Shown piece after piece: positions 4,931-57,731 of a stretch of DNA of 64,000 nucleotides (its first letter is position 1; each line of letters starts with the position of its first letter). The position numbers and the translations under genes are program-made. The notes below the pieces were generated by a model. It was given only the letters and a program-made list of their open reading frames with translations. It made no database searches and was not told the origin of the DNA. Source of the DNA: Thermoanaerobaculales bacterium (lineage in GTDB: Bacteria; Acidobacteriota; Thermoanaerobaculia; Thermoanaerobaculales; Sulfomarinibacteraceae); assembly GCA_035358815.1 (NCBI GenBank), contig DAOPQC010000001.1:22100-86099 (forward strand), given 5' to 3'.

Positions 4931-4945
4931 GCGTACCATTCCGTC

Positions 4946-35734: not shown

Positions 35735-35985
35735 GCTCCCCTCCACTTCGATCCAGACAACAGCGGACGGCGCCGATCCGTTCCCCGTCACGCGCGCCGC
35801 CGGTGGACATCGCAGGTGCTTTCTCATCATGGACTTGTGGCACACGGCCGAGGTGGGGTGCTACGATCGGGGCGGCGGTCCCAACGCCGATGCTCGGAGG
35901 TCCGTACACTCGATGGAGACAGGTGATGACGCCGGGAAAGCTGTGCGTCCTTCCCGCGGCGGGAGAGGACCGGACTGCGGCTGCG

Positions 35986-36561
35986 ATGGATGACCGCGAG
36001 GCGGTGCGTGCCGCGAGGGCCGGCGACGACGACGCGTTCGCTGCGCTGGTCCGGCGCTACTCGGGCGGTCTCCACCGGGCGATCGCCAGGATCCTCGCCG
36101 ACGATGCCGAGGCCTGGGACGTGGTCCAGATGGCCTTCGTGCGCGCCTGGCAGGGCCTCGACCGCTACGACGAGCGATGGAGCTTCTCCACCTGGCTGTA
36201 CCGCATCGGCACCAACCTCGCGATCGACCTGCTCCGCTCGCGGACCAGCCGCGAGAAGGCCCACCGGGCGGGCGCCGAGCACCGTTTCCGGGTCGTCGGT
36301 GAGATGCCTCCGGCCTCGGAGCTCGCCGACCATCGCGAGGTCGACCGCCTGTTCGACGAGCTGGTGGGCTGCTTGACACCGCAGCAGCGCAGCGCCTTCG
36401 TGCTGCGCGAGCTGCAGGGGCTCGACACCGCCGACGTCGCCAAGGCGCTCGGGTGCACGACGACGACGGTGCGCAACCACGTGTTCCAGGCACGCAAGCT
36501 CCTGCGCGAGGAGCTGGCCCGCAGGTTCCCGGAGTACCTGCCGCCGTCACGGAGAGCTTGA
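35986..36561 (+). CDS. ECF (sigma-70 group 4) RNA polymerase sigma factor
   Basis: Region 2 'FAALVRRYSGGLHRAIARIL..AWDVVQMAFVRAW' and region 4 'LTPQQRSAFVLRELQGLDTADVAKALGCTTTTVRNHVFQARKKL'-like. Alternative start at 35926. Confidence 0.85.
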   Translation: MDDREAVRAARAGDDDAFAALVRRYSGGLHRAIARILADDAEAWDVVQMAFVRAWQGLDRYDERWSFSTWLYRIGTNLAIDLLRSRTSREKAHRAGAEHRFRVVGEMPPASELADHREVDRLFDELVGCLTPQQRSAFVLRELQGLDTADVAKALGCTTTTVRNHVFQARKLLREELARRFPEYLPPSRRA

Positions 36562-36562
36562 T

Positions 36563-37069
36563 ATGCGCTGCACCGACATCCCCGATCTGCTCGACGCCTA
36601 CCTGGCGGACACCCTGGATGAGCCCCGCCGCAACGCGGTGCGCGGCCATCTGAGGGCATGCGAGCGCTGCCGGGCGGCGGCGGTCGACGCCGACCCGAGC
36701 CTGCTGTTCGTCGCCGCGGCGCCGGGCCCGCCCGACCCGGTCCGCGTCGAGGACACGGCCCGAGCGGTGATCGCCCAGGTCCGCCAGCAGCGGATGCAGC
36801 GGCGGCTCGGCCACCGCCGGCCCTGGCTGGCGGCCGCTGCCGCGGTGGTGCTGTCGCTGGTCACGGTCGCCGGATGGCGGCTGCTGGCGCCCGGCAGCGG
36901 CCCCGACGACGCGGGCCCGGACGCCGCCCGGGTGGCCGAGACTCCCAGCCCGCCGCCCCGGATCGAGGTCGACATGGCCGGCGAAGGGGTCCGCGTCTAC
37001 CAGTACGCAGACCAGCAGGACTCGGACACGGCAGTCACCTTCATCGTCAACCCCGAGCTGGAGCTGTGA
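36563..37069 (+). CDS. Anti-sigma factor (zf-HC2 type, single TM)
   Basis: It starts 2 nt after the sigma gene stop. N-terminal 'H-x3-C-x2-C' ('RGHLRACERCRAA') and one TM segment ('WLAAAAAVVLSLVTVAGW'). Confidence 0.7.
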   Translation: MRCTDIPDLLDAYLADTLDEPRRNAVRGHLRACERCRAAAVDADPSLLFVAAAPGPPDPVRVEDTARAVIAQVRQQRMQRRLGHRRPWLAAAAAVVLSLVTVAGWRLLAPGSGPDDAGPDAARVAETPSPPPRIEVDMAGEGVRVYQYADQQDSDTAVTFIVNPELEL

Positions 37070-37789: not shown

Positions 37790-38998
37790 TTGCCCGAGTT
37801 CCTCTGTCGGATCGGCTCCCCGGACGGCTCGGTGCTCGAGCTGCGACGGGTCGCCGTGTCGATGGAGGCTGTGCAGCGGGAGCTGGAGAGCGAGGGCTTC
37901 CACGTCTTCAGCGTCGGCCGCGCCAGGTCCCGGCTCCGCGTGCCGCTGGTGTCGCGGGCCGAGAAGGTCCCGTCGCAGGACTTCCTGCTCTTCAACACCC
38001 AGCTGCGCACCCTGCTTCGCGCCGGCCTGCCGCTCGCCCAGTCGCTCGAGCTGCTCAAGGCGCAGCAGACGCACCCCCACTTCCGCGTCCTGCTCGACAA
38101 GGTCCACCAGCAGGTGACGACCGGGGTGTCGCTGTCCGACGCCTTCCTGTCGCTGGGCGACGTCTTCCCGAAGCTCTACGCCAACTCGCTGCGCGCCGGC
38201 GAGCGGTCGGGCGACCTCGAGAGCGTGATCGGGCGCTTCGTCCAGTATCAGCGCCTGGTCGAGTCGGTCCGCAAGAAGATCGTCGCCGCCCTGACCTACC
38301 CGGCGGTCCTGGTCGCGCTCGCGGTGGCCCTGGTGGTGCTGCTGGTGGCCTACGTGATCCCGAGGTTCTCGGACTTCTACACCCAGTTCGGGTCCGAGCT
38401 CCCGCTGCCGACCCGGATCGTGCTCGGGGTCGCACACACGGTCGAGAGCAACCTGATCCTGATTATCGTCGGCGGGGGGCTGGCGATCTGGGGCTTCCGG
38501 GCCTGGAAGGCGTCGCCGGCCGGCCGGCGGGTGGTCGATCGCTGGACGCTCCGGCTGCCGCTCCTGGGACGGCTCGCCCAGCAGTTCGCCCTGTCCCAGT
38601 TCACGCGCTCGCTGGCGGTGCTGCTGCATGGCGGCACCCCGATGGTGCCGGCGCTCGAGACGGCGGCGACGTCGGTGAAGAACGTCTACATTTCCGAGCT
38701 GTTCCTCGGCTGCGTCCGGGAGGTGCAGGAGGGGCGGCCGCTGTCCGACGCGCTCGAGGACACCGGCCGGGCCCCGGGCCTCGCCCTGGCCATGATCCGG
38801 GTCGGCGAGTCCACCGGAGCGCTGCCCGAGATGCTCGAGCACACCTCCAACTTCTTCGACGAGGAGATCGAGTTCTCCCTGACCCGGATCACCACCCTGT
38901 TCGAGCCGATGATCCTGGTGTTCATGGGCATCGTCATTGCGGGCCTGCTGCTGGCCGTCTACTATCCGCTGCTCAGGCTCGTGTCGACGATCGCGTGA
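37790..38998 (+). CDS. gspF: Type II secretion / type IV pilus platform protein (GspF/PilC family)
   Basis: TTG start. 402 aa with two T2SSF repeats and three TM segments. Confidence 0.85.
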   Translation: MPEFLCRIGSPDGSVLELRRVAVSMEAVQRELESEGFHVFSVGRARSRLRVPLVSRAEKVPSQDFLLFNTQLRTLLRAGLPLAQSLELLKAQQTHPHFRVLLDKVHQQVTTGVSLSDAFLSLGDVFPKLYANSLRAGERSGDLESVIGRFVQYQRLVESVRKKIVAALTYPAVLVALAVALVVLLVAYVIPRFSDFYTQFGSELPLPTRIVLGVAHTVESNLILIIVGGGLAIWGFRAWKASPAGRRVVDRWTLRLPLLGRLAQQFALSQFTRSLAVLLHGGTPMVPALETAATSVKNVYISELFLGCVREVQEGRPLSDALEDTGRAPGLALAMIRVGESTGALPEMLEHTSNFFDEEIEFSLTRITTLFEPMILVFMGIVIAGLLLAVYYPLLRLVSTIA

Positions 38999-39005
38999 GG
39001 TAGCC

Positions 39006-40649
39006 ATGGCGACAGATCCCACACTGGACCGGACGCTGGTCATGCTCGATGAGCAGGACGCGACCGAGGTCCACGACGACGTGGCCGAGGCCCGCGCCCT
39101 GGCTGCGCGGATCGGCCTCCCGTTCGATCCCCTCGACGAGTTCCACATCGATCCCGAGCTGTTCCGCGCGATCCCGGTCGAGGTGATGCTGCGCTACCAG
39201 TTCCTGCCGCTCGCGTCGGACGGCGAGGTCCTGCGGGTGGTGATGGCGGACCCATCGAACGTGGTCCAGCTCAACGAGGTGGAGCTGGCGCTGGCGCGTC
39301 CGCTCGACGTGCTGGTGGGGCCGCCGACGCGGATCGCGGACATCCTCGAGAAGTCGGAGTCGACGCAGCGCGTGCTCGACGAGGCGACGGAAGGCTTCCA
39401 GCTGCAGCTGGTCCAGGAGGCGGAGGACGGCGAGGAGGTGCTGTCAATCGACCGGATCACCGCCGACTCGTCGCCGATCATCCGGCTGGTCGACTCGGTG
39501 CTCTTCAACGCCATCCAGCGCAGGGCCTCGGACATCCACATCGAGACCCAGGACCGCGAGGTGGTGGTCAAGTACCGGATCGACGGCGTGCTCTACCAGG
39601 CCATGAAGTCGATCGACAAGCGCCACCACTCGACCATCATCTCCCGGATCAAGGTGATGTCCGAGCTCGACATCGCCGAGAAGCGGATCCCCCAGGACGG
39701 CCGCTTCAAGGTGCGCTTCTCCGGCCGGACGATCGACTTCCGGGTGTCGATCATGCCCAACGTGCACGGCGAGGACGCGGTCATCCGGATCCTCGACAAG
39801 GAGTCCACCAACGCCGAGTTCCGGACCCTGAACCTGAGCGTGCTCGGGCTCGAGGAGGACACCAAGGCCCAGCTCCGGAAGTTCATCCGGGAGCCCTACG
39901 GAATGGTGCTGGTCACGGGGCCGACCGGGTCGGGCAAGACGACCACCCTCTACGCCTGCCTGTCCGAGATCCAGTCCTCCGAGGACAAGATCATCACCAT
40001 CGAGGACCCGGTCGAGTACCAGCTCAAGGGCATCACCCAGATCCCGGTGAACGAGAAGAAGGGGCTCACCTTCGCCCGCGGCCTGCGGTCGATCCTCCGC
40101 CATGACCCCGACAAGATCATGGTCGGAGAGATCCGTGACGAGGAGACGGCGGCGATCGCCGTGCAGTCGGCGCTGACCGGCCACCTGGTGTTCACCACGG
40201 TGCACGCCAACAACGTGGTCGATGTCATCGGCCGCTTCCTCAACATGAACGTCCACCTCTACAACTTCGTGTCCGCCCTGAACTGCGTGCTGGCGCAGCG
40301 GCTGGTGCGTCGAATCTGCGTCCACTGCAAGCGCCCGGCGACCGTTTCCGACCAGCTGCTCGACGACTCCGGGCTGGAGCCCGCCCGCTACCGCGACTTC
40401 GTCTTCTACGAGGGCGCCGGGTGCATCGAGTGCAACGGCACCGGCTACCGGGGGCGGCTCGCGATCGCCGAGCTGCTCAACCTGTCGGACAACATCCGGC
40501 AGCTGATCATCGACCACCGGTCGGCGGCCGAGATCAAGCGCGCCGCCAAGGCCGAGGGCATGCGCTTCCTGCGCGAGTCGGCGCTCCAGAAGGTCTTCGC
40601 CGGGGAAACCACGCTCCATGACATCAACAAGGTGACCTTCGTGGAATGA
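39006..40649 (+). CDS. gspE: Type II secretion / type IV pilus assembly ATPase (GspE/PilB family)
   Basis: The ATG at 39006 lies inside ORF 38937..40649. T2SSE_N domain, Walker A 'GPTGSGKTTT', a tetracysteine motif ('CVHCKRP...CIECNGTGYRGR') and 'TGHLVFTTVHAN'. Confidence 0.9.
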   Translation: MATDPTLDRTLVMLDEQDATEVHDDVAEARALAARIGLPFDPLDEFHIDPELFRAIPVEVMLRYQFLPLASDGEVLRVVMADPSNVVQLNEVELALARPLDVLVGPPTRIADILEKSESTQRVLDEATEGFQLQLVQEAEDGEEVLSIDRITADSSPIIRLVDSVLFNAIQRRASDIHIETQDREVVVKYRIDGVLYQAMKSIDKRHHSTIISRIKVMSELDIAEKRIPQDGRFKVRFSGRTIDFRVSIMPNVHGEDAVIRILDKESTNAEFRTLNLSVLGLEEDTKAQLRKFIREPYGMVLVTGPTGSGKTTTLYACLSEIQSSEDKIITIEDPVEYQLKGITQIPVNEKKGLTFARGLRSILRHDPDKIMVGEIRDEETAAIAVQSALTGHLVFTTVHANNVVDVIGRFLNMNVHLYNFVSALNCVLAQRLVRRICVHCKRPATVSDQLLDDSGLEPARYRDFVFYEGAGCIECNGTGYRGRLAIAELLNLSDNIRQLIIDHRSAAEIKRAAKAEGMRFLRESALQKVFAGETTLHDINKVTFVE

Positions 40650-41557
40650 GCTGGGCACGCTTCCTCATCAGTCCGCCGCCGACCACGAGCTGGATCCTCG
40701 ACGGCTCGGTGGTCGCGGCGATCCGGCGCGAGCCCAGGGGCGGCGTCCTGTGGGCCGCCGAGGCGACTCCGCCCGGGTCGTTCGAGGTCGGCCCGGTCGG
40801 CCTGCAAGCGGTCGACCGCCGCAAGCTGGTCGCGGCGCTCGGCTCGATCCACGGCCGCCTCGAGGGCGCGCGCCGTGCGGCCGTGGTGGTGCCCACCGGC
40901 TGGACGCGGAGCTACGTGCTCTCCTTCCAGGATCTGCCCCGCCGGCAGCGCGAGATCGAGCAGGTCGTGCAGTGGCGGCTGAAGAAGCTGCTGCCGGCGC
41001 CGCCGTCGGAGCTGAGGATGTCGCTCGTGAACCTGGCGCCGACCGACGGTGCCCGGCCCATGCTCGTGATGGTGGCGATGGAGCGCGCGCTGTCAGAGCT
41101 CGAGGCAGCGTTCCGGGAGGTCGGGGTCGAGCTCGGCCTGATCACCGGCCAGATCTTCGCGCTCGCCGCCGCCTCCGCACCGGGGACGCGGCTGCTGGTG
41201 CAGCAGGAGCAGGGCTTCCTGAGCCTGCACCTGTCCGAAGGCGACGACCTGCGGCTGATCAGGACCAAGCACCTCGCGTCGTCGGGCCGGGTGGGCGAGG
41301 CCGTCCGGCGGGAGCTCAACCTCACGCTGGGCTACATCCGCGAGACCCTCGGCGTGCCCGGGGAGCTCGGCATCGAGGTGTTCGCCGACAGCGCCGTGCT
41401 CGAGCGGGAGATCGAGGACTGGCGCTTGATGCAGCCCGGCGTGACGAGGCTGCCCGAGCGGCCGGCACCGCCCTTCACGGTGGCCGGTGCGGAGGGCCGC
41501 CTCGGCCAGGCGCGGATCCAGCCGCTGTGGGCGGTGATCGCGGAGGCCCACCCGTGA
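40646..41557 (+). CDS. PilM/GspL-like (actin-fold) assembly protein
   Basis: 4-nt overlap with gspE. Its position and ~300-aa size match PilM. The sequence similarity is only loosely PilM-like. Confidence 0.55.
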   Translation: MSWARFLISPPPTTSWILDGSVVAAIRREPRGGVLWAAEATPPGSFEVGPVGLQAVDRRKLVAALGSIHGRLEGARRAAVVVPTGWTRSYVLSFQDLPRRQREIEQVVQWRLKKLLPAPPSELRMSLVNLAPTDGARPMLVMVAMERALSELEAAFREVGVELGLITGQIFALAAASAPGTRLLVQQEQGFLSLHLSEGDDLRLIRTKHLASSGRVGEAVRRELNLTLGYIRETLGVPGELGIEVFADSAVLEREIEDWRLMQPGVTRLPERPAPPFTVAGAEGRLGQARIQPLWAVIAEAHP

Positions 41558-42126
41558 TGACGCCGAACCTCGCCGAGCGCCCCTTCCTCAACACCCGCCC
41601 GGTGTGGCTGGTCGCGGCGGCGGCCGGCGCGCTGGCGCTGGCGCTGATCGTCGCCAACGCCGTCTCCTTCGTGTACACCGGCAGCACCCTGGCGCCGCTC
41701 GTCGAGCGCCGCGACCAGCTGGTGGTCGAGGAGCGGGCGCTCGTCGCCAGGCTGTCGGGCCTGGTGACGGACCTGTCCAAGGTCCCCTGGAGATCGCTGG
41801 GGGCGCGGATCGACGCCACCAACGTCATCCTGCGCGAGCACAACTTCTCCTGGCTCGCGATGCTCGATGACGTGGAGCGGGTGATGCCGTACGACGTGCG
41901 GATCGTCCAGATCTCTCCCGACGTTGGTCCGGCCGAGGTCGACCTGAACCTGAGGGTGATCGCGAAGACCCGCGAGGCGATGATCGAGTTCCTGGAGAAC
42001 CTGGTCTCCGATCCGAGCTTCTCGAGGCCGACCCCACAGTCCGAGACCACGCCCGAGCAGTCGCAGTCGGGCTCGTATCAGATGTCACTCAGCGTGCGCT
42101 ACCACCCGCCGAAGGAGTCGTCGTGA
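41557..42126 (+). CDS. PilN-like bitopic inner-membrane protein
   Basis: The ATG overlaps the upstream stop (GTGATGA). N-terminal 'NLAERPF' followed by a TM segment, as in PilN/fimbrial assembly proteins. Confidence 0.65.
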   Translation: MTPNLAERPFLNTRPVWLVAAAAGALALALIVANAVSFVYTGSTLAPLVERRDQLVVEERALVARLSGLVTDLSKVPWRSLGARIDATNVILREHNFSWLAMLDDVERVMPYDVRIVQISPDVGPAEVDLNLRVIAKTREAMIEFLENLVSDPSFSRPTPQSETTPEQSQSGSYQMSLSVRYHPPKESS

Positions 42127-42878
42127 CCGTGGACCTGCGTCCGTGGCGGCGCCTGCTGCCGGTCTGGCTCCCGGCGGTCGGGCTGTGCCTGATCGCCGCC
42201 GCCGCCTACGTCTGGCAGAGCTCCGCGTCGGGAGGCCGCGCCGCTGGCGTGCGCGCCGAGATCGACGAGCTCGAGACCGAGATCGGCCGCCTGCAGGGCC
42301 TCCTCGCCCAGGTTGAGGGCGAGCGGGCGACGGTGGCGAGCGTCAACGAGACCTTCGACCTGCTGTACGGCAAGGTCTTCCGGAGCCTCGACGATCGTCT
42401 GACCAACATCCTCCGGGAGGTCGGCCTGGCGACCAGGAGCGCCGGCCTGCTGCCGGGCGCCTACAAGTACCAGGCCGAGGAGGACAAGAAGACCGGGTAC
42501 GTGAGGTTCTCGATCGTGTTCTCGGTGAACGGCCAGTACGCGCAGATGCGGCAGCTGATCGCCGCGATCCAGTCGAGCCCGGAGTTCCTGGTCGTCGAGG
42601 GGATCGCGTTTTCCGGGGATGAGCAGGCGGCCACCCAGGAGCTGATGATCGCGGTGAGGGTCGCCACCTATCTCTCCGAGGCCAGCCGGGAGACGCTCGA
42701 CCGACTGACGGGGGGCATTCGCCAGGCGGCCGCCGCCGATGCCGCGGCGACGCCTGACGGTGATGCCCAGGCGGCGCCGGGTGGCGAGCCGCCCGCGGCC
42801 GGCGGCGGTGATGCCCGGGTGACCCCAGATGGCGAAGCTCAAGTGACCGGGGAAGTCGATGCCGAATCCGAAGGATAG
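42123..42878 (+). CDS. PilO/GspM-like bitopic inner-membrane protein
   Basis: 4-nt overlap. TM segment, then a coiled coil 'EIDELETEIGRLQGLLAQVE', then a ferredoxin-like C-terminal part. Confidence 0.6.
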   Translation: MTVDLRPWRRLLPVWLPAVGLCLIAAAAYVWQSSASGGRAAGVRAEIDELETEIGRLQGLLAQVEGERATVASVNETFDLLYGKVFRSLDDRLTNILREVGLATRSAGLLPGAYKYQAEEDKKTGYVRFSIVFSVNGQYAQMRQLIAAIQSSPEFLVVEGIAFSGDEQAATQELMIAVRVATYLSEASRETLDRLTGGIRQAAAADAAATPDGDAQAAPGGEPPAAGGGDARVTPDGEAQVTGEVDAESEG

Positions 42879-43449
42879 CCGGGGCCGCGTGGCGCTGCTG
42901 GTCGGCCTGATGGTCGTCCTGGGGGCGGTGGTCGTCGTGCAGCTGCTGCGCGATCGCAGCGCGGTCAGCCGCGGCCTGTCGGACAAGCGGATCACCTACG
43001 AGGCCCACTCCCTGTCGCCGTTGGAGCCGCTCGAGCCTCGCGGCGACACCGGCAGTGCGGAGTTCCGCAGGAACCCGTTCATCTATGGGGTGCCGCCGAC
43101 CGCCACGCCGCGGCCGGTCACGCCGCTGCCGACGCGACCCCCGGTGCAGAGGACGCCACAGCCGACGCCGACGCCGCGCATGGCTCGCGGCGCTGACGGC
43201 AGGCCCAAGCCGCCGCCGCCGCCGTTCGATCGTGAGTTCCTCGGCCACTTCGGCCCCCTGAGGATGCAGGTCGCTGCGTTCCGCAGGCCGGGGCTGTCGC
43301 CGGAGCTCTCCGAGATCGAGGTCGCGAAGGTGGGCGACGTGCTCGACGGCATCTTCATCGTTCGCGAGATAGGATTGGAGTCGGTCAAGATCGGCTTCGT
43401 GGGCTATGACCCGTCGGAGGACACCCGTGTTCCGTTGTCTGAGAACTGA
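42859..43449 (+). CDS. PilP/GspC-like membrane-anchored, proline-rich periplasmic protein
   Basis: TM segment, Pro-rich linker and a small C-terminal beta domain. Its position is immediately before the secretin gene. Confidence 0.45.
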   Translation: MPNPKDSRGRVALLVGLMVVLGAVVVVQLLRDRSAVSRGLSDKRITYEAHSLSPLEPLEPRGDTGSAEFRRNPFIYGVPPTATPRPVTPLPTRPPVQRTPQPTPTPRMARGADGRPKPPPPPFDREFLGHFGPLRMQVAAFRRPGLSPELSEIEVAKVGDVLDGIFIVREIGLESVKIGFVGYDPSEDTRVPLSEN

Positions 43450-45850
43450 CGCTCCGGCGTTCCGGATCGCCGTCCTTGGCGCGCTGCTGGCCGCCGCCGT
43501 CGGCTGCTCGACCCAGCAGGCCGCGCAGGCCAGCAAGGAGGCGGTCAAACACGAGAACTGGGACGCCGCCGTCTACCACTACCTCGAGCTGGTGGCGAAG
43601 GAGCCGGAGAACCTCGAGTACCGGATCGGGCTCCGGCGCGCCCGCCAGAACGCCGCCCACGTCCACTTCCAGCGCGGCGTTGCCCTCCGCGACGCCGGTC
43701 GGGTGGTCGAGGCTCGCGACGAGGTCCAGATGGCGGTCCAGCTCGACCCGACCCACCAGTTCGCGGAGCAGGTCCTCGACGGCCTCAACAAGGAGATCGA
43801 GATCCTCTCCGGTCCCGGCGGCAAGGGCGAGCTCGAGGACCTGAAGCGCCAGGCCCGCGAGGCGAAGGTGAAGCCGCCGGTCCTCGACCCGGCGTCCAAG
43901 GAGCCGGTCACCCTGGTGTTCCCCAGCCCGAAGCCGGTCAAGGAGATCTACGACGCCATCGGCAAGGCGTACGGCTTCAACGTGATCTTCGATCCCAAGC
44001 TGAAGGACGACCGGCTCCCGGTCGAGCTGCGCGACGTCACCGCCGAGCGGGCGCTCGAGATCGTGATGCAGGCGGCCGGCCACTTCTACAAGGTGCTCGA
44101 CCCGAAGACGATCATCGTCGCCGAGGACAACCCGCAGAACCGGCGCGACTACGAGGACCTGGTCATCAAGACCTTCTTCCTGTCGAACGCCGACGTCAAG
44201 GAGGTCGACAAGCTGCTGCGCTCCTTGATCGAGGCGCGGCGGCTCTCGACCAACGAGCAGCTCAACGCGATCACGCTGCGCGACACCGCCGACAAGGTCG
44301 CGATCGCCGAGAAGCTGATCACGGTCAACGACAAGGCCAAGGCCGAGGTGCTGGTGGATGTCGAGCTGATGGAGGTCGACACCGGGGACCAGTCCGAGAT
44401 CGGGATGAGCCTCTCCACCTACAGCTTCATCCTGGCCGCCGACACGGCGCAGACCAGCCCGGACGCGCCGGAGGGCAGTTCCTTCCTGGACGACCTGTCG
44501 AACATCGCCCGCGAGAACGTGTTCATCAACGTGCCGTCGGTGACCATCAACCTCGTCAAGTCGAGCGGCAAGGCGTCGATCCTCGCCCAGCCGCAGCTGC
44601 GGATCACCGAGGGCGAGAAGGCCTCGCTGCACCTCGGCGACCGGGTGCCGATCCCGGTGACCTCTTTCAACACCTCGAACACCATCGGCGGCAACGTGGT
44701 GCCGATCACCTCCTTCCAGTACCAGGACATCGGCATCAAGATCGAGGTCGAGCCGCGGGTCCACCACAACCGTGAGGTCACGCTCAAGCTGACGGTCGAG
44801 GTCTCGCAGCTCGGCGACACCGTGCAGGTCGGTCCGGGTCAGGAGGCGGTGACGATCGGGACCCGCACCATCACCTCGGTGATCCGGCTGCGCAGCGGCG
44901 AGTCGAGCCTGCTGGCCGGCCTGATCCGCAAGGACACGACCTCCGGCTCGACCGAGATCCCGCTGCTGTCGGACATCCCGTACCTCGGCCGGCTGTTCAC
45001 CAACACCAAGAAGCAGACCAAGACCACCGATCTGGTGCTGACCCTGACCCCGCACATCATCCGCTTCCCGGCGATCGAGGAGGAGGACCTGGCGCCGGTC
45101 TGGGTGGGCACCGAGAGCCGGATCTCCTTCTTCGGCTCGAGCTCGCCGCGCGTGCAGTCCGGGACCTCGCCGCAGGGGCCGTTCGACTCGGGCGGTGAGG
45201 ACTACCAGGGCGACCAGGGCGAGAAGCCGTCCGAGGGCTCGGGGGAGGACGCGCCGGCGCCCTACGGCGTCCGCGGCCGGTCGGTCAGCCCGCGGCGGGT
45301 GACGCCGCCAACCGGTGACACCGGGGGCGTCGAGCTGGTTCCCAGGGGCGACAGCCGCGACACCTGGCCCGGGGATGACGGCGCGCCGCAGCAGCAGGCC
45401 GAGGAGACCAAGGCAGCGGCCGTGGTCGATGACAGCCGGCCACCGCTCATCATCGGCCTCGAGCCGGCGGTGGCGGCGCTGCCCAGCGGGAGCGAGATCG
45501 TGCTCCAGCTGGTGGTGAAGGGCGCGCCGGGCTCGTACCGGCTGCCGCTGGGCCTGTCGTTCGATCCGGGACGGGTGACCGTGCAGTCTTTCGAGCCGGC
45601 GCCCGGCGTCAACGTCATGGAGGGCAGCATCGAGCTCGACAACGGCTGGATGTCTCTCGACCTGGTGGTGCCGGCGGCCGACGACGGCGCTCGTGCCATC
45701 GGTGCGATCACGGTGCGGGCAGAGGCGCCCGGCCCGGTTCCCCTGGCCTTCACCTCGCCCGGCGCGACCATGTCCGACGGCACGGTGCTGCCGGTGGCGG
45801 CGAGCGACGGCGCGGTCTTCGTGTCCGCGGCCGGGGAGGGCGGGGGCTGA
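43406..45850 (+). CDS. Secretin (GspD/PilQ family) with an N-terminal lipoprotein-TPR module and a C-terminal cohesin-like extension
   Basis: 'LLAAAVGCS' lipobox. TPR-like helices occupy residues ~40-130. The canonical secretin C-domain runs 'ILAQPQLRITEGEKASLHLGDRVPIP...IPLLSDIPYLGRLF'. A ~250-aa tail follows. The start is uncertain because it overlaps the upstream gene. Confidence 0.85.
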   Translation: MTRRRTPVFRCLRTDAPAFRIAVLGALLAAAVGCSTQQAAQASKEAVKHENWDAAVYHYLELVAKEPENLEYRIGLRRARQNAAHVHFQRGVALRDAGRVVEARDEVQMAVQLDPTHQFAEQVLDGLNKEIEILSGPGGKGELEDLKRQAREAKVKPPVLDPASKEPVTLVFPSPKPVKEIYDAIGKAYGFNVIFDPKLKDDRLPVELRDVTAERALEIVMQAAGHFYKVLDPKTIIVAEDNPQNRRDYEDLVIKTFFLSNADVKEVDKLLRSLIEARRLSTNEQLNAITLRDTADKVAIAEKLITVNDKAKAEVLVDVELMEVDTGDQSEIGMSLSTYSFILAADTAQTSPDAPEGSSFLDDLSNIARENVFINVPSVTINLVKSSGKASILAQPQLRITEGEKASLHLGDRVPIPVTSFNTSNTIGGNVVPITSFQYQDIGIKIEVEPRVHHNREVTLKLTVEVSQLGDTVQVGPGQEAVTIGTRTITSVIRLRSGESSLLAGLIRKDTTSGSTEIPLLSDIPYLGRLFTNTKKQTKTTDLVLTLTPHIIRFPAIEEEDLAPVWVGTESRISFFGSSSPRVQSGTSPQGPFDSGGEDYQGDQGEKPSEGSGEDAPAPYGVRGRSVSPRRVTPPTGDTGGVELVPRGDSRDTWPGDDGAPQQQAEETKAAAVVDDSRPPLIIGLEPAVAALPSGSEIVLQLVVKGAPGSYRLPLGLSFDPGRVTVQSFEPAPGVNVMEGSIELDNGWMSLDLVVPAADDGARAIGAITVRAEAPGPVPLAFTSPGATMSDGTVLPVAASDGAVFVSAAGEGGG

Positions 45851-45851
45851 G

Positions 45852-46325
45852 ATGATCCGCCACCTGCACCGCCGCCGCAGCGAGAGGGGCTTCACGCTCG
45901 CTGAGCTGGTGATGGTCGCGGCGCTGATCGCGGTCCTCTCAACGATGGCCCTGCCGGTGGCCAAGTTCACCGTCAAGCGCCGCAAGGAGGCCGAGCTGCG
46001 GCTCGCGCTGCGGCTGATGCGCAACGCCATCGACGAGCACAAGCGCCTGTCCGACCAGGGCTTGATCCCGTTGACCCTGGGTGGCGAGGGCTACCCGGAG
46101 GACCTCGACGTGCTGGTGGAGGGCGTCGACCTGGTGGGGCAGGAGACCAAGCGCCGCTTCCTGCGCCGCATCCCGTGGGACCCGATGACCGGAGAGCAGG
46201 AGTGGGGCAAGCGGTCCTACCAGGACGACCCCGACTCTGACAGCTGGGGGAGCGAGAACCTCTACGACGTGTACTCGTTGTCGGACGGCACCGCCATCGA
46301 CGGCACGAAGTACAAGGACTGGTGA
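45852..46325 (+). CDS. GspG-like pseudopilin (prepilin-type N-terminal cleavage/methylation domain)
   Basis: ATG at 45852. The leader is 'MIRHLHRRRSERG|FTLAELVMVAALIAVL'. Confidence 0.8.
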   Translation: MIRHLHRRRSERGFTLAELVMVAALIAVLSTMALPVAKFTVKRRKEAELRLALRLMRNAIDEHKRLSDQGLIPLTLGGEGYPEDLDVLVEGVDLVGQETKRRFLRRIPWDPMTGEQEWGKRSYQDDPDSDSWGSENLYDVYSLSDGTAIDGTKYKDW

Positions 46326-46861
46326 GCATGAACATCCCGGATATCGGACTCGGGACCGCGGCCCTCCGCCGGGCGACCGCGAGCGAGCCCTGGGGCCCCG
46401 CCTCCGCCGGTCGCGGGCCGTCCGTCAGTCCGCGGCCCCCCGCCCGCGGCCGCCGGGCCGGCGGGTTCACGCTGATCGAGCTGATGGTCGTGGTCGCGAT
46501 CATCGGCATCCTCGCGGTGGTGGCGCTGCCGGCGATGCGGACGGCGCCCCTCAAGGCCCGCGAGGCGGTGCTCAAGGCCGACCTCTACCAGATCCGGTCA
46601 TGCATCGACCAGTACCTCGGCGACAAGGGCGAGTACCCGGAGTCGCTGCAGGGCCTGGTCGATGCCGGGTACCTGCGCTTCGTGCCGGTCGACCCGATCA
46701 CCCGGTCGGCCGACACCTGGGTCGAGCTCGAGGCCACGCCGACCGAGACCGAGGACCTCGAGCCGATCGAGGAGGACCTCGGCGGCACGGTGGGCATCAT
46801 CGACGTCAAGTCGGGGGCCGACGGAGTCGCCCTTGACGGCACGCTCTACTCGGACTGGTAA
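46322..46861 (+). CDS. gspG: GspG-like major pseudopilin with an unusually long predicted leader
   Basis: 'G|FTLIELMVVVAIIGILA' lies 46-48 codons after the only upstream in-frame starts (GTG 46322, ATG 46328). The C-terminal part, 'YPESLQGLVDAGYLRFVPVDPIT', is GspG-like. Confidence 0.7.
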   Translation: MSMNIPDIGLGTAALRRATASEPWGPASAGRGPSVSPRPPARGRRAGGFTLIELMVVVAIIGILAVVALPAMRTAPLKAREAVLKADLYQIRSCIDQYLGDKGEYPESLQGLVDAGYLRFVPVDPITRSADTWVELEATPTETEDLEPIEEDLGGTVGIIDVKSGADGVALDGTLYSDW

Positions 46862-46865
46862 CGGA

Positions 46866-47756
46866 ATGTCGTCGGGCGTGCGGGAACCGCGGATCGCTGA
46901 GAGCCAGCCGGGATCGGCGTCGTTCCCGCTCCCGTGCCCGTTCCCGCTCCCGGATGTGACATCGATCCGGTCGGCAGCGGCCTCGCGGTCGGGGCCCGTG
47001 GACACGGCACGGACTGGCCACCGGCGAGAAGTTGGGAACGGGGACGGGAACGGGAACGGGAACGCGGAGGGGGGCTACACCCTGGTCATCGTGGTGCTGG
47101 TGGTCGCCATCATGTCGATCATGATGGCGGTGGCGGTGCAGACCGTGGAGTTCCAGATGCGCCGCGAGCGGGAGGCCGAGCTGATCTTCCGCGGCCAGCA
47201 GTACGTCGAGGCGATCCGGCTGTACCGGATGAAGTACGGCCGCTACCCGATGCGGATGAAGGAGATCTGGGAGGCCAACCCGAGGGTCGTCCGCAAGCGG
47301 TGGAAGGACCCGATGACCGACTCCGAGAGCTGGGGCCTGATCTTCCTCGGCCAAGAGGGCCGGCGGATCGGCGCCGACAACCCGCTCGGGAACACCCCGA
47401 ACGCCACCCGGACCGTCACCTACGACGGCAGCGGCCTCGATGAAGGCGGGCGGGACGATGGGACGACGATGGGGCCGGACGGCGAGAAGATCGGGCCGAT
47501 CGTCGGCGTCCACTCCACCTCGTGCGAGGAGAGCATCAAGGTCTACGAGGGGCGGACCACCTACTGCGAGTGGCAGTTCGTGTTCCGTGAGGTGCGCGGG
47601 GTCGGCGGCGGCCGCCCCCCGTCGGGCGGCTACCATCCCGGCAAGACCCCCGTCGTGCCCGGTGGGGGCGAGGGCGGCGGGAGCGGCGGCGGCGGTGGCG
47701 GCGGTGGCGGCGGCGGGAGTCCGCCGCCGGGCTACACGCCGACCATCTACCCGTAA
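46866..47756 (+). CDS. Pseudopilin-like protein (no Glu5) with a Gly-rich C-terminal tail; the 5' leader is built from intergenic-repeat sequence
   Basis: 'GG|YTLVIVVLVVAIMSIMMAVAV' hydrophobic helix. The only in-frame starts upstream are ATG 46866 and GTGs at 46878, about 46956 and 46998. The tail reads 'GGGEGGGSGGGGGGGGGGGSPPPGY'. Confidence 0.6.
   Translation: MSSGVREPRIAESQPGSASFPLPCPFPLPDVTSIRSAAASRSGPVDTARTGHRREVGNGDGNGNGNAEGGYTLVIVVLVVAIMSIMMAVAVQTVEFQMRREREAELIFRGQQYVEAIRLYRMKYGRYPMRMKEIWEANPRVVRKRWKDPMTDSESWGLIFLGQEGRRIGADNPLGNTPNATRTVTYDGSGLDEGGRDDGTTMGPDGEKIGPIVGVHSTSCEESIKVYEGRTTYCEWQFVFREVRGVGGGRPPSGGYHPGKTPVVPGGGEGGGSGGGGGGGGGGGSPPPGYTPTIYP
46915..47066. repeat. C-rich/G-rich inverted hexamer arms lying inside the 5' region of a pseudopilin ORF
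   Basis: 'CGTTCCCGCTCCCGTGCCCGTTCCCGCTCCCGG' (46921-46952) faces 'GGGAACGGGGACGGGAACGGGAACGGGAACG' (47034-47064). Confidence 0.8.
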
Positions 47757-47785
47757 GGTCCCTCTGGTACACTCCGCGGCTGGAA

Positions 47786-49015
47786 ATGCGTAGACGAGGT
47801 CTCGATTCCCCGGCCCTCCTGGTCCACCCGACGCCCGGACGCAGCACCGTCACGGCCGGGGTCTGGCTCGCCGCCGGCTCGGCCCACGAGCCGCGGGCGC
47901 TGGCCGGGGCCACCCACATGGTGGAGCACCTGACGCTGCGCCGGTGCGGTGCCCGCGACCGCTTCGCCCTCGCCCGGCTCGTCGACCGCCTCGGCGGCGA
48001 CGTCGACGCGTGGACCAGCTCCGAGCTGATGGGCGTCACTGTGCAGACCACCGTCGACGCGATCGACGAGGGCCTCGCGCTGCTGGTGGACGCGATCCTC
48101 GAGCCCAGCTTCGACGCCGACGACTTCGATCTGGAGCGGCGGATCGCGCTGGCCGAGCTCGAGCTGCTGCAGGACGATCCGGCGGAGCGGGTCGAGGAGG
48201 ACCTGCTGCGCGCGGCGTGGGGGGACCACCCGCTGGCCCGGCCGGTGATCGGGACGGCGCGCTCGCTCGCGGCGCTGACGCCGCAGGCGCTGCGCCGCCA
48301 TCACGCCGCAATGGTGCAGCCGGGCCGCGTGCTGGCGGCGGTCACCGGCGACATTGACCGGGCGCAGCTTCAGGACCGGCTGCGGCGCCTGCCGCTGGCC
48401 GAGTCGGTGTCGCCGCCGAGCCTGCCGCCGCTGCGCTGGCGGGGCCGGGACCAGGTCGTGCGGCGGCCGGCAGCCGATCAGGCGCATTGCCGGCTCGCCT
48501 TCCCGGCAGTGGCAGCGGCCAGCCCCGACGCCACCGCGGTCGGCGTGCTCAATCGGATTCTCGGCGTCGGCGCGTCGAGCCGCCTGTTCCAGCGGCTGCG
48601 CGAGGTCGAGGGCCTCACCTACGACATCTGGTCGAGCGCGATGCTGCGCCGCGGCGGCGGCCTGCTCGAGATCGGCTGGGCGTGTGCGCCGGCGGTCCTC
48701 GACCAGGTGCGCACGCTGGTCAACGAGGAGCTGCGACGGATCGCGGTCGACCTCGTCGACGACGAGGTCGAGGTGGCGCGGGAGGGCCTGGCGCGCGGGC
48801 TCGCGATGGAGGTCGAGCTGCCGGCCGCCTACTGCGCGATGGACGTGGCCGAGCTGCTCGACCGTGGGCGCCGTTTCGACCTCGAGGTCGCCCGGGCGGA
48901 GATCGCGGCGGTCACCGCGCCGCAGGTGCAGCGGATCGCGGCCGAGCTGCTGCGGCCGGAGCGGATGGCGACGGCGCTGTGCGGCCCCGACGGGGTCTCG
49001 GCGCGGGTCGCGTGA
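47786..49015 (+). CDS. M16 (pitrilysin/insulinase) family zinc peptidase
   Basis: Inverted zinc motif HxxEH is present as '[11 protein letters not shown]'. Confidence 0.8.
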
Positions 49016-50296: not shown

Positions 50297-50388
50297 ACGT
50301 GAACCGCTGAGCGCGCAGAGAGCGCTGAGACCAGGGCCGCGCACTTCCAATGACCCTTCACCGCGTTCTCGGCGCCCTCCGCGGTTCG
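50297..50388 (+). repeat. ~90-nt hairpin-forming repeat element, copy 2
   Basis: 'ACGTGAACCGCTGAGCGCGCAGAGAGCGCTGAGACCAGGG...CACCGCGTTCTCGGCGCCCTCCGCGGTTCG'. Confidence 0.8.
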
Positions 50389-50446
50389 ATCGCTCCGCCC
50401 CTACGTGATGAAACCGTGCCACGAAGAAGAGAGCCCGGGCACGGAG

Positions 50447-50825
50447 GCGGGCGCGGAAGCGGGCGCGGAAGCGGGCGGGGGAGCAAGTCCACAACGGTGG
50501 CAGGTACCGCCATTGCGGTCATGATCAGTGGCGGAGCCAACCGAGCTTCACGGCAGGGCGGGAACGGGAACGGGAACGGGAACGGCTGGAGCCCCTATCC
50601 CCCAGATCCAAGATCCTCGTCGGAAGCGGGCGCGGAAGCGGGCGCGGAAGCGGGCGAGGGAGCAAGTCCACAACGGTGGCAGGTACCGCCATTGCGGTCA
50701 TGATCAGTGGCGGAGCCAACCGAGCTTCACGGCAGGGCGGGAACGGGAACGGGAACGGGAACGGCTGGAGCCCCTATCCCCCAGATCCAAGATCCTCGTC
50801 GGAAGCGGGCGCGGAAGCGGGCGAG
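50447..50825. repeat. Tandem direct repeat, 179-bp unit x ~2.1
   Basis: 'GAGCAAGTCC...' starts at 50481 and again at 50660. The units are near-identical and each contains (GCGGAAGCGGGC)n, GGTGGCAGGTACCGCCATTGCGG, (GGGAAC)4 and CAGATCCAAGATCC. Confidence 0.9.
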
Positions 50826-50907
50826 AGTCCTGGCGTTCTTCAACGCCTTGGCCGGCCTGCAGTCGAAAAGCGGTATCATGGAGGAACAGACGACGGAGGA
50901 GCGAGCC

Positions 50908-51675
50908 ATGACAACGGCGCGCCGGGTGACGTTGGTGGCGATCGTGGCGCTGGGCGTGGCGACTGCCGGCGCGGCCCAGACCGCGAGCCAGAAGTGTGTC
51001 GGCGCGGTGCACACGGCCTATCCCGAGGAGCCGGCGGTGTGGGTGGTCGCGGCCCACAGCGCGGCCGACCACAGCGAGCTCGAGTGGCGCTCGGCATCAG
51101 GCCGGGTCGGGGTGTGCCGGCTGGAGCCGGACGGCCGGATCTCGGACGTGAAGGCCACCGGGTTCGCGCAGCCGGCGGCCCCGGCGGCGGTGGAGCCGCA
51201 GGCCTTCGAGCCCTACCAGCTCACCTGCGAGTCCGAGCACGGCGGCCGCCACGAGTGCGAGATCGAGGGACCGGCAATCGTGGTCATGGTCGAGCAGCTC
51301 GGCGACGTCGACTGCATCGAGAACCTCAGCTGGGGCCAGGGCGAGGGCGCGATCTGGGTCGACGGCGGCTGCCGGGCGGTGTTCGAGGTGAGGCCCCGGC
51401 CGCCCAAGCTTGATCCGGGCACGCTACGCGGCCCGGCCGCCGGCGAGCCCGCGGCGGCCGAAGGGATGGCCCACCCCCGCTTCCGCGAGGCCCGTGCCCA
51501 GGACCGCTGCCGGGCCGCTGCCGCCGCCGGCGGGATGATGGTGCAGCGCGTGCTCGGCACCCGGATCGACGGGGCCGCGGTGGTCGTGTTGATGGAGGTC
51601 GCAAGCTGGAGCCAGCGCGGGGAGGTGACCTGCCGCTGGGACTCCGCCACCGACCAGGCGGTCATCGCGAGGTAG
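50908..51675 (+). CDS. DUF3011-domain secreted protein
   Basis: The ATG at 50908 lies 7 nt after 'GGAGGA'. Signal peptide. 'CESEHGGRHECEI...VEQLGDVDCIENLSWGQGEGAIWVDGGCRAVFEV' matches the DUF3011 cysteine pattern. Confidence 0.7.
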   Translation: MTTARRVTLVAIVALGVATAGAAQTASQKCVGAVHTAYPEEPAVWVVAAHSAADHSELEWRSASGRVGVCRLEPDGRISDVKATGFAQPAAPAAVEPQAFEPYQLTCESEHGGRHECEIEGPAIVVMVEQLGDVDCIENLSWGQGEGAIWVDGGCRAVFEVRPRPPKLDPGTLRGPAAGEPAAAEGMAHPRFREARAQDRCRAAAAAGGMMVQRVLGTRIDGAAVVVLMEVASWSQRGEVTCRWDSATDQAVIAR

Positions 51676-51898: not shown

Positions 51899-51939
51899 CG
51901 CCCGCGGGACGCGCACCCCTCGTGCTCGCCTGGCCTCCC

Positions 51940-52185
51940 GGGATCGGGAACGGGGACGGGAACGGGGACGGGAACGGGGACGGGAACGGGAGCGGGAACG
52001 AGGTACGGTACGGGCGGGGCGCTCTATTCCCGAGATCTCAGATCCCAGATCCTGGTCGGACGCGGAAGCGGATCCGACTTCCGGCTTCGCTCGAAGCTTC
52101 GCCGGGACGAGTCGCCTCCGGCTTCGCCGTGACAGGAGCGGGAGGGGGGCCTACCCCCTAGATCCTAGATCCTAGATCCTGCCCG
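51940..52185. repeat. Longest G3-tract hexamer array plus GATC heptamers
   Basis: 11 G3-4 tracts (GGGATCGGGAACGGGGACGGGAAC...) at 51940-52000. GATCTCA-GATCCCA-GATCCTG at 52033-52053. (TAGATCC)3 at 52157-52178. The reverse of the GTCACGGCG box lies at 52108-52125. Confidence 0.85.
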
Positions 52186-53481: not shown

Positions 53482-53572
53482 GTGAACCGCCGAGAGCGCT
53501 GAGAGCGCAGAGGAGTCGCGAGGAAACGGTGAGACGACCTTACTCCGCGTTTTTGGCGCCCCCCGCGGTTCA
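53482..53572 (+). repeat. ~90-nt hairpin-forming repeat element, copy 3 (most divergent)
   Basis: 'GTGAACCGCCGAGAGCGCTGAGAGCGCAGAGG...CTCCGCGTTTTTGGCGCCCCCCGCGGTTCA'. Confidence 0.7.
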
Positions 53573-53722
53573 ATTCCAACGCGCCCACCCCCCGAGGCCT
53601 CACCACGACGACGCCTGAACGCCACGGGTGGGGAAGGGGAGGTGCACCGACGGACGTGGAGCGGTCAACCTGACTCGGGAACGGGAACGGGGACGGGAAC
53701 GGGCAGCGACACTCGACCGTGG

Positions 53723-57687: not shown

Positions 57688-57731
57688 CCTCCGTTCCCGT
57701 TCCCGTTCCCGTTCCCGTTCCCGAACTCCCC
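57688..57731. repeat. (GTTCCC)5 array in the purL/purM divergent promoter region
   Basis: 'CCCTCCGTTCCCGTTCCCGTTCCCGTTCCCGTTCCCGAACTCCCC'. Confidence 0.85.

Follow-up and report, generated by a model that had tools for sequence, protein, structure and literature searches.

In-frame repeat DNA in the predicted leaders of two pseudopilins of an uncultured Thermoanaerobaculales bacterium

Introduction

Type IV pilins and the pseudopilins of type II secretion systems (T2SS) carry class III signal peptides, which have a glycine at position -1, a following F/Y-T-L and a hydrophobic helix of ~20 residues, and their genes stand in tandem beside machinery genes of the GspE, GspF, PilO and secretin types. 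The leaders of such prepilins are cited as 6-26 aa long, or up to ~30 aa in the type IVb group (PMC4471445). We have analyzed a 64,000-nt stretch of DNA (the window; positions are counted from its first nucleotide) from a metagenome-assembled genome (MAG) of an uncultured Thermoanaerobaculales bacterium (Acidobacteriota), in which a type IV filament gene cluster is closed by three tandem pilin-like genes, pseudopilins 1, 2 and 3 (pp1, pp2 and pp3). Both pp2 and pp3 resemble the class III proteins in all the respects named, and the leader of pp2 lies well outside the cited range, whereas that of pp3, depending on the start, only touches its limit (26 aa) or exceeds it by far (70 aa). In contrast to the known long-leader class III forms (type IVb, Flp and Geobacter PilA), in which the leader is a dedicated hydrophilic peptide, the leaders here would be translated repeat DNA. 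In the literature we found no description of comparably long prepilin leaders and no paper naming Thermoanaerobaculia together with pilins.

The closest analogue in mechanism appears to be the palindromic elements of Rickettsia, which are inserted in frame into protein-coding genes (PMC10969869). As with these and other elements of the miniature inverted-repeat transposable element type, a palindrome of ~100-200 nt lies within an open reading frame (ORF) that stays open, adding a peptide that would be tolerated, and orthologues with short leaders lack the element, so that here too the insertion is within the ORF, frame-preserving and sometimes absent. The pp3 element is predicted to form a hairpin and the pp2 sites of relatives are palindromic; the RNA fold of the pp2 leader in the window itself is not better than that of shuffled sequence (z = +1.0). 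Unlike the Rickettsia elements, the insertions described here are found only in a segment that would later be cleaved off, and at the same two junctions throughout the class.

Two further groups of repeats are similar in other respects. Intergenic tandem repeats are known with the unit GGGNATC in Xanthomonas and Nostoc (PMC4692102) and with the unit TAACTGA in Beggiatoaceae and cyanobacteria (PMC4679880), a post-transcriptional role having been proposed for the latter. Like the tracts of the window, they consist of 3-10 copies of 6-7-nt units, occur genome-wide, for the most part in the gaps of same-strand gene pairs and no more than tens of nt away from starts or stops, and are capable of forming G-quadruplexes in their G-rich versions. 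By sequence, the window tracts show the features of the GGGNATC class, namely at least four G3 tracts with short loops, tandem 6-7-nt units and a dispersed, mainly non-coding distribution. The known repeats of both kinds are untranslated, whereas here two inverted arrays would make up a long hairpin that is translated within a signal peptide. The intercistronic hairpins of the repetitive extragenic palindromic type (REP and REPIN) set differential expression in operons, for example in malEFG of E. coli. The predicted stem-loop described here is likewise stable, not of the terminator kind, and placed between cistrons directly after the gene of the first, probably most abundant subunit, but it differs from the REP/REPIN consensus in its tandem simple-repeat arms and in lying inside the downstream ORF.

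Results

All in-frame NTG and ATN codons 5' of the cleavage sites of pp2 and pp3 were listed by script. The cleavage site of pp2 is G/FTLIELMVV (the slash marks the point of cleavage), with the codon of Gly(-1) at 46463-46465 and that of Phe(+1) at 46466, and the only NTG starts in its frame are GTG 46322, which overlaps the pp1 stop codon (GTGA) and gives a leader of 48 aa, and ATG 46328, 2 nt past the pp1 stop, which gives 46 aa. Apart from ATG 46328, the only ATN codons are ATC 46334 (44 aa) and ATC 46343 (41 aa), and from there up to 46465 the frame contains no NTG or ATN codon. The pp2 leader is thus at least 46 aa long, or 41 aa if a near-cognate ATC start is used. In pp3 (GG/YTLVIV, Gly(-1) codon 47073-47075, Tyr(+1) codon 47076), the in-frame starts are ATG 46866, GTG 46878, GTG 46956 and GTG 46998, giving leaders of 70, 66, 40 and 26 aa, respectively, and there is no in-frame NTG or ATN codon within 26 codons of Gly-1. 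An initial annotation, made from the letters of this DNA, had described the cleavage motifs of both genes as lying far from usable starts, and the listing bears this out, with at least 41-46 codons in pp2 and 26 in pp3. The two inner candidates that it named for pp3, GTG 46878 and a GTG near 46956, are also present, and GTG 46998 with its 26-aa leader is indeed the minimum, but the 62-aa leader assigned to ATG 46866 was a miscount, since (47076-46866)/3 = 70.

The products of both genes are predicted to function as pilin-like subunits in a type IV filament system. The Gly at -1 is followed by F-T-L in pp2 (G/FTLIELMVVVAIIGILAVVALPA) and by Y-T-L in pp3 (G/YTLVIVVLVVAIMSIMMAVAV), and then by a hydrophobic alpha-1N segment of ~20 residues, as in class III proteins. 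The pp2 product matches Pfam N_methyl (PF07963; 34.0 bits, cut-off 21.2, residues 44-69) and TIGR02532 (30.2 bits, cut-off 16.3), its mature part aligns residue 1 to residue 1 with the solved PilE, PilA and GspG, and it has the Glu5 of class III pilins, which is present in pp1 as well. The pp3 product has Val, not Glu, at position +5; Glu5 is also missing in some minor subunits, such as GspK. It falls below the cut-offs of the N-terminal methylation models, with weak matches to GspG, GspK and PilX_N (E ~0.01-0.06), and a profile of its homologues matches pilin N-termini weakly (E = 0.005). We found 542 homologues of pp3, many of them named PulG-type by JGI; Gly-1 and Thr+2 are invariant across 32 of these, and the motif [ES][GA]G/[YF]T[LM] is kept in ~110 of 120, with synonymous variation such as ACC/ACG. 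Compared with close relatives, the mature parts differ at 5, 13 and 30 first, second and third codon positions in pp3, and at 4, 1 and 21 in pp2 (relative L083; 16% of third positions), suggesting that both genes are under purifying selection. An AlphaFold model of pp3, for which 32 sequences were aligned, has a mean predicted local distance difference test score (pLDDT) of 46, and its only credible part is the long N-terminal helix. The C-terminus of pp3 (47630-47756) is a Gly/Pro-rich tail, GGGEGGGSGGGGGGGGGGGSPPPGYTPTIYP, with a (GGC)n tract at 47673-47716, and its length varies among homologues.

The leaders were then compared in 80 genome loci and 5 metagenome loci, in each of which the cleavage codons and the preceding stop were located. 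Homology searches with pp2 and pp3 gave hundreds of homologues, mostly from MAGs of Thermoanaerobaculia, Holophagae or Sulfomarinibacteraceae, and a metagenome scan with a third-position-degenerate spacer pattern, which proved too unspecific for G+C-rich DNA, yielded a single true homologue (L128) among 118 loci. In the repeat-free loci and in outgroups, leaders of 10-13 aa begin at a start 1-12 nt past the upstream stop, and 28-66 nt separate this stop from the cleavage site. Among the called N-termini of homologues, MGGEGG/YTLV, MKTENRPREAG/FTLV and W-stop-TMKSRKRPEVG/FTLIEL are examples of conventional short leaders. We take the short leader with its stop-adjacent start to be the ancestral state. 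In most Thermoanaerobaculia, by contrast, the space from the upstream stop to the cleavage site is occupied in pp2 and pp3 by inverted repeats with hexamer or heptamer arms; such repeat-filled junctions are 100-323 nt long, usually contain an inverted pair, and were found at pp2 in 22 loci and at pp3 in 44. The conventional leader of pp1 served as an internal control: its minimal length is 7-17 aa in every locus where the gene was found (7-13 aa in all but one), and no repeat was found in it in ~60 loci, which argues against random insertion. The arm units change from lineage to lineage (GGGAAC, GGAAGC, ATTTCGG, AATTCGG, AGGAATT), the two arms staying complementary throughout. In the long-leader homologues, translated hexamers read as GNGNGNG or GHGHGHG and translated heptamers as IQNSKFKIQNS, IRNPKSEIRNPKS, IPNSEFRIPNS or RIANCGLRIAN; a heptamer such as ATTCAAA, ATCCGAA or CGAATTG is read in each of its three phases in turn. 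The same architecture recurs in independent NCBI, ENA and JGI assemblies. The density of tracts is 5.5-5.8 per kb at pilin junctions and 0.11 per kb in the rest of the loci, a contrast on which we do not rely because the rest is mostly coding and several of the tracts counted there are pp1-pp2 junctions in which pp1 was undetected.

This comparison bears on two proposals of the initial annotation. It had suggested that a repeat was inserted at the 5' end of pp3 and had named orthologues with an equally long, repeat-free leader as the finding that would speak against this; in the event, long leaders go with repeats and short leaders without them, the repeat-armed junctions of 100-323 nt keeping the frame open. 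It had also regarded one of the two genes as built from repeat DNA, which holds for pp3 but overlooks that the pp2 site is repeat-occupied in close relatives too: L001, L002, L003 and L082 have a heptamer-armed palindrome at this site, to which the pp2 leader of the window aligns poorly, retaining only weak CGGAC-type inverted remnants.

We infer that the inserted DNA is translated in frame, since stop codons are depleted in the pilin frame. In loci with a junction of at least 100 nt, and with statistics that ignore phylogenetic relatedness, the pp1-pp2 junctions contain 5 stops in the pilin frame against 21 and 33 in the other two (binomial p = 8e-6; 20 of 22 loci stop-free), and the pp2-pp3 junctions 19 against 57 and 69 (p = 2e-8; 26 of 44 loci stop-free). 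The depletion was unchanged with near-duplicates removed, and the counts 5' of the closest possible start are 3/9/23 by frame for pp2 and 16/35/50 for pp3. At pp2, 18 of 21 loci have a stop-adjacent ATG that shares its phase with the cleavage codon. The junction lengths there (101, 121, 125, 127, 130, 131, 133, 134, 136, 140, 148, 149, 152 and 226 nt) are set apart by amounts other than multiples of 7, so that slippage of heptamers on its own would not have kept the frame. Compared with its nearest pp2 relative, L083, the pp2 leader of the window has 24 substitutions (17%), distributed over codon positions as 7, 6 and 11, and no indels. The leader peptide thus appears to drift at about the synonymous rate while the frame is kept, which is good evidence that pp2-type leaders are translated from the stop-adjacent ancestral start. 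For pp3 of the window, the evidence of translation is thinner than for these pp2-type leaders. Its ATG 46866 is in frame and conserved in 5/5 close relatives without a frameshifting indel, and the segment from this ATG to the first arm (46866-46920) shows a divergence of 17-37% from the close relatives of the window, with an even distribution of the differences over codon positions (7, 4 and 7 in one comparison), and one of 4-27% among L001, L082, L083 and L128. This pattern fits a segment that is unconstrained in sequence yet kept in frame.

The element in the pp3 leader consists of two 31-nt arms, 87% complementary and 82 nt apart, at 46921-46951 and 47034-47064, and their order, C-rich first and G-rich second, agrees with the initial annotation. 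The copy number of the C-rich arm varies among relatives by multiples of 6 nt. Folding of this region, which had been proposed as a check, gave a stable structure for 46900-47080 (181 nt; -102.7 kcal/mol, z = -3.7, 0 of 200 shuffles as stable), and in a consensus fold of four sequences the arms pair and the stem runs on into the spacer, with 53 pairs (a stem of ~50 bp), one compensatory pair (C-G to G-C) and GTG 46998 paired within a small apical stem. The derivation of the pp3 leader from a repeat family was upheld for the arms, with 24 matches of a degenerate hexamer-tract pattern in the window against 0.1 expected by chance, but not for the 82-nt core, which matches orthologous pp3 loci only and neither other parts of the window nor unrelated loci. 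The dispersed family thus comprises the arms only. Among L001, L082, L083 and L128, the spacer differs at 0-3 of 81 nt, compared with 14-23% of third and 2-8% of first and second positions in the codons of mature pp3; the window differs from them at 9-12 of the 81 sites. Read in the pp3 frame against L001, they change six codons synonymously and two non-synonymously, and the two changes 5' of GTG 46998 are both of the synonymous kind. The GC content at third codon positions (GC3) is 0.70 in the spacer and 0.96 in mature pp3. The spacer may therefore be constrained through its RNA or DNA structure, through the peptide or through the two together.

Searches for known signals in the region were negative. 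There was no match to the curated Rfam covariance models at E <= 1 on either strand of 45500-47800, no intrinsic terminator in 45700-47900 (the stem is G+C-rich without a U-tract, and GCGGAGGGGGGCTAC follows the 3' arm), and no hit in a sigma-70 promoter scan. No terminal inverted repeats or target-site duplication were seen in the alignments of relatives, nor any link to a transposase, for which no search was made.

When each long junction was folded against dinucleotide shuffles, 48% of those between pp2 and pp3 had z below -2, with a median of -1.8 and an extreme of -10.2 for this group, compared with 23% of those between pp1 and pp2. The clearest hairpins, in L046, L043, L037, L052 and L056, are near-perfect stems of 25-30 bp that open 3-10 nt past the upstream stop and close four codons (x-E-x-G, ~12 nt) short of the cleavage codon. 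In these loci and in L047, a G-rich loop motif (GGGGGTGGGTGG, GGGGAGGGTGG and similar) stands directly before a GTG or ATG, and the loops of the heptamer-armed hairpins look as though they present a Shine-Dalgarno site together with a start codon. Of the two kinds of control, by hairpin or by G-quadruplex, that the initial annotation had envisaged, it is hairpin potential that recurs, and the G-quadruplex is not conserved. A canonical G-quadruplex motif is predicted at 47034-47060 in the G-rich arm and is specific to the G+C-rich hexamer lineages; we rejected it as a general mechanism, most relatives having A/T-rich heptamer arms without G-runs. Two other roles for the arms were considered and dropped, namely GGAAC as a -35 box for extracytoplasmic function (ECF) sigma factors, one of which is encoded with an anti-sigma factor at the head of the cluster, and the GGA motifs as CsrA-type sites. 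In the former case the spacing to a -10-like GTC is unfit and a transcript from there would lack the leader; the latter gave no consistent picture, the GGA arm being 3' here and 5' in the heptamer lineages.

Gene callers disagree on where these genes begin. The pp3 product read from GTG 46998 is 100% identical to the NCBI MAG protein PLV66_07675, and NCBI annotates this start (P0001, 252 aa); JGI and ENA use the stop-adjacent ATG or an internal GTG. One pp2 is started by JGI inside the mature protein, and the calls also disagree at L081 1661 and L082 1656. Automatic annotation of pilin starts in the Thermoanaerobaculia clade is thus unreliable.

The positions of the features are collected in Table 1. 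The pseudopilin genes close a cluster of T2SS/MSH-like filament genes in which pp1 is the first, probably major, pseudopilin of the operon; the pair of ECF sigma factor and anti-sigma factor at its head and the MshEN domain (of the type that binds cyclic di-GMP) on the ATPase are hints on the control of the filament system.

Table 1. Positions of the pseudopilin genes, the pp3 element, the filament gene cluster and the hexamer tracts in the window
Feature	Positions	Strand	Evidence or remark
Pseudopilin 1 (pp1)	45852-46325	+	13-aa leader MIRHLHRRRSERG/FTLAELV; Pfam N_methyl 25.7 bits
Pseudopilin 2 (pp2)	46322/46328-46861	+	TIGR01710 GspG 1.3e-13; Pfam N_methyl
pp2 leader-coding region	46328-46465	+	46 codons, 83% G+C
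Pseudopilin 3 (pp3), minor-pseudopilin-like	46866-47756	+	ATG 46866 is 4 nt past the pp2 stop codon
5' part of pp3 leader region, stop-adjacent ATG to first arm	46866-46920	+	Alignment of relatives
C-rich hexamer arm (GTTCCC/GCTCCC units)	46921-46951	+	FPLPCPFPLP in pp3 frame; GC3 1.0
Spacer (core) between arms, 82 nt, holds GTG 46998	46952-47033	+	Locus-specific
Conserved in-frame GTG, closest possible pp3 start, 26-aa leader	46998-47000	+	Present in 5/5 aligned relatives
G-rich hexamer arm (GGGAAC/GGGGAC units)	47034-47064	+	GNGDGNGNGN in pp3 frame
pp3 E-G-G/Y codons, prepilin-peptidase-type cleavage site	47067-47078	+	Sequence conservation
ECF sigma factor and zf-HC2 anti-sigma factor	35803-37066		Head of pilus gene cluster; Pfam
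Secretin_N protein			Between sigma/anti-sigma pair and GspF/PilC in cluster listing; Pfam
Type IV filament (T2SS/MSH-like) machinery, 5' of pseudopilins	37790-45850	+	ORFs, Pfam
GspF/PilC platform	37790-38998	+	Pfam T2SSF 1.7e-56
GspE-type ATPase with MshEN domain	38937-40649	+	Pfam T2SSE 9.9e-131, MshEN 2.7e-17
ORF in PilM position	40646-41557	+	No Pfam match
PilO-like	42123-42878	+	Pfam PilO 2.8e-5
TPR-secretin	43406-45850	+	Pfam Secretin 8.3e-41
Hexamer tracts in window	4854-4881, 5928-5966, 17947-18035, 23656-23689, 24911-24949, 35325-35342		
Hexamer tracts in window, continued	50559-50585, 50738-50764, 51939-52008, 53677-53700, 57691-57723		

Tracts of the arm type are widespread in the window. 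GGGNNC/GNNCCC tracts occur at 14 places, nearly all outside likely coding regions, and the (GGGAAC)n/(GTTCCC)n tracts, with 3-10 copies, are mostly intergenic and near the starts or ends of genes; most tracts are single, with inverted pairs at only 2 of ~14 sites, and most of the G-rich ones conform to the G-quadruplex motif. The only other inverted pair like that of pp3 (17948-17965/18018-18035) precedes a normal ribosome-binding site and the ATG of a GTP cyclohydrolase-like gene (~18150). At 50442-50823, upstream of an ORF at ~50860-51675, a 179-bp unit is repeated in tandem (2.1 copies, 99% identity); the unit combines (CGGAAGCGGGCG)n with a unique stretch, with (GGGAAC)4 and with AGATCC heptamers, and it looks like a recently amplified composite intergenic repeat. 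Heptamer tracts of the (AGATCCT/AGATCCA)n kind are found at 52150-52180, 50597-50612 and 52036-52052, and they resemble the heptamer arms that replace the hexamer arms in relatives and, when reverse-complemented, the GGGNATC repeats of Xanthomonas and Nostoc. A further repeat family may be represented by 50297-50335 and 53484-53520, two intergenic segments adjoining other repeat tracts that have the common motif GTGAACCGC(C/T)GAG(A/C)GCGC...GAGAGCGC. Finally, two 43-45-nt tandem duplications with a common GGTGCCTGGCACC palindrome, at 4691-4774 and 5976-6066, flank an ORF at 4802-5791 on opposite strands.

Discussion

We favor, with moderate confidence, the explanation that repeat DNA was inserted in frame into the disposable leaders of functional pp2 and pp3 genes and is translated there. 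The class III signal peptides would then have been lengthened between the stop-adjacent ancestral start and the last ~4 codons before the cleavage site, through repeats that were inserted or expanded inside an ancestrally short leader. The pp2 protein would be made with a leader of 46-48 aa, and pp3 with one of 70 aa (ATG 46866), of 26 aa (GTG 46998) or both. By analogy with known class III proteins, the leader would stay in the cytoplasm and be removed by the prepilin peptidase after Gly-1, which would explain why the insertion is tolerated and why the sequence of the leader drifts. Beyond this, a role of the hairpin in the mRNA is speculative; the exclusion of pp1, the complementarity of the arms despite turnover of their units and the highly conserved core could reflect such a role. 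The hairpin might throttle or couple the translation of the downstream minor subunits, or it might be a site for RNase III or for mRNA stability that stabilizes the upstream cistron, so that subunit ratios would be set after pp1.

Several observations weigh against this explanation or limit its reach. All of the comparison data come from the sequences of MAGs, and the relatedness of the loci, disregarded in the stop-codon statistics, is likewise a point to be held against them. At pp3, no more than 16-17 of 32 loci have their stop-adjacent ATG in phase, and 18 of 44 pp2-pp3 junctions contain a stop of the pilin frame, so that many lineages must start inside the element; the heptamer-type loops, moreover, often hold a G-rich Shine-Dalgarno-like run and an in-frame GTG or ATG at -17 to -22. 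The leader regions of the window are 73-83% G+C, in which stop codons are rare by chance, and since the arms are hexameric, with changes in copy number that leave the frame untouched, translation of the 5' half of the pp3 leader cannot be demonstrated from the window alone. The spacer lacks the GC3 bias of the mature gene, so that its conservation may concern the RNA or DNA and not the protein. In Rickettsia the whole unit is dispersed, whereas here only the simple-repeat arms are, the core being locus-specific. A function of the hairpin, in turn, cannot be general, because the pp2 leader of the window has no significant fold, as is the case for about half of the junctions. Lastly, three loci, L007 (at pp2), L043 and L058 (both at pp3), lack a canonical start of the pilin frame on the stretch that leads from an in-frame stop to the cleavage site. 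The conserved ATG of pp3 is out of phase in L002, and G/A homopolymers lie close by in L043. For these broken starts, indels from assembly or sequencing are plausible, with real frameshifts or unusual initiation as the alternative.

We hold only tentatively that, across Thermoanaerobaculia, the long hairpins with hexamer or heptamer arms have been recruited as a translated control module within the signal peptides of pp2 and pp3, which the ribosome must melt, setting subunit stoichiometry or tying the synthesis of the minor subunits to that of the major one, and which is then discarded with the leader; that the ribosome would do so either on arriving from the upstream cistron or after starting in the loop, leaving a junk leader of 26-70 aa, is equally tentative. 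Slightly more doubtful, in our judgment, is a role of the hairpin as a non-coding RNA element between cistrons, with pp3 starting at GTG 46998 in its apical part and having a 26-aa leader in which only the G-rich arm is translated; that the 5' arm and the region from 46866 are untranslated, and that the hairpin sequesters or exposes the start, shares this doubt. The GTG is kept in 5/5 close relatives and is the start annotated by NCBI, the resulting leader is within the type IVb range, the region 46866-46920 evolves without a codon-position pattern, and both the Shine-Dalgarno-like motifs with GTG or ATG in the loops of many heptamer-type relatives and the 18 of 44 pp2-pp3 junctions with an in-frame stop 5' of the loop start point to initiation inside the hairpin. 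Such a start is, however, inapplicable to pp2, which has no internal start, and even in pp3 stops of the pilin frame are still depleted 5' of the proximal start (16 against 35 and 50), ATG 46866 is in frame in all five relatives without a frameshift despite the 17-37% divergence, and both codon changes relative to L001 that lie 5' of GTG 46998 are synonymous. The GTG itself is preceded by a weak Shine-Dalgarno match, GGGG at only 3 nt, and is paired in the consensus fold. A little less likely still is that the element is neutral junk without function, the tracts having spread to every tolerant site, of which a cleavable leader would be the only one in a packed operon. The presence of the same hexamer tracts in many other intergenic regions of the window would agree with this, as would the drift of the leaders at a neutral rate, the loss of a significant fold from the window pp2 leader and the unremarkable z-scores of about half of the junctions. 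Against it stand the contrast between pp1, never invaded in ~60 loci, and pp2 and pp3, invaded in 22 and 44, the arms that stay complementary through unit turnover, the conservation of the 82-nt core beyond the coding rate, and the rarity of inverted pairs among the tracts of the window, where most are single.

The last two alternatives carry little weight. The long leaders might never be made, and a conventional or unprocessed protein might result, translation beginning at a non-canonical codon near the cleavage site, as the initial annotation had suggested as one option, or inside the helix at GTG 47091, GTG 47094 or ATG 47112. There is a strong GGAGGGGGG run at 47066-47074, and some homologues (P0034, P0054 and P0083) are called with a start inside the helix. 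This is nevertheless very improbable: the listing leaves no NTG or ATN codon closer to Gly-1 than 26 codons in pp3 and 41 in pp2, and the invariance of Gly-1 and Thr+2 across 32 homologues requires that translation start 5' of these residues, the conservation of the cleavage motif with synonymous variation indicating that its codons are translated. In addition, the distance of 16-20 nt that separates GTG 47091 from the GGAGG run is too great, homologues with an ATG only 6-7 codons upstream (P0014, P0017) conserve the GAG-GGN-GGN codons just as well, and a start inside the helix would give a protein without the charged N-terminal region. An assembly artefact or a set of pseudogenes, which the MAG source and the broken frames in L002, L007, L043 and L058 might suggest, is the least credible of all, given that the architecture is repeated in independent assemblies from three databases and that the mature parts appear to be under purifying selection.

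If the in-frame insertion that we favor is correct, the obligatory leaders of at least 41-46 residues would mean that prepilin peptidases and insertion by the signal recognition particle (SRP)/Sec route accept a wider range than has been described, and both pilin-finding tools and the annotation of start codons, on which gene callers already disagree at these genes, would need adjusting. The locus would be a natural example of repeat DNA colonizing a part of a protein that is discarded, where selfish or structural DNA and coding constraint can coexist. Were the hairpin to be a translated control module, it would represent a new way to hide an mRNA regulatory element in a disposable part of a protein, with prepilin peptidase working well beyond 30-residue leaders. 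The analysis also brings to attention the abundant hexamer and heptamer repeat families of Thermoanaerobaculia, and, if the hairpins regulate, they would offer a testable, lineage-wide mechanism for setting the ratios of pilin subunits in a poorly known phylum.

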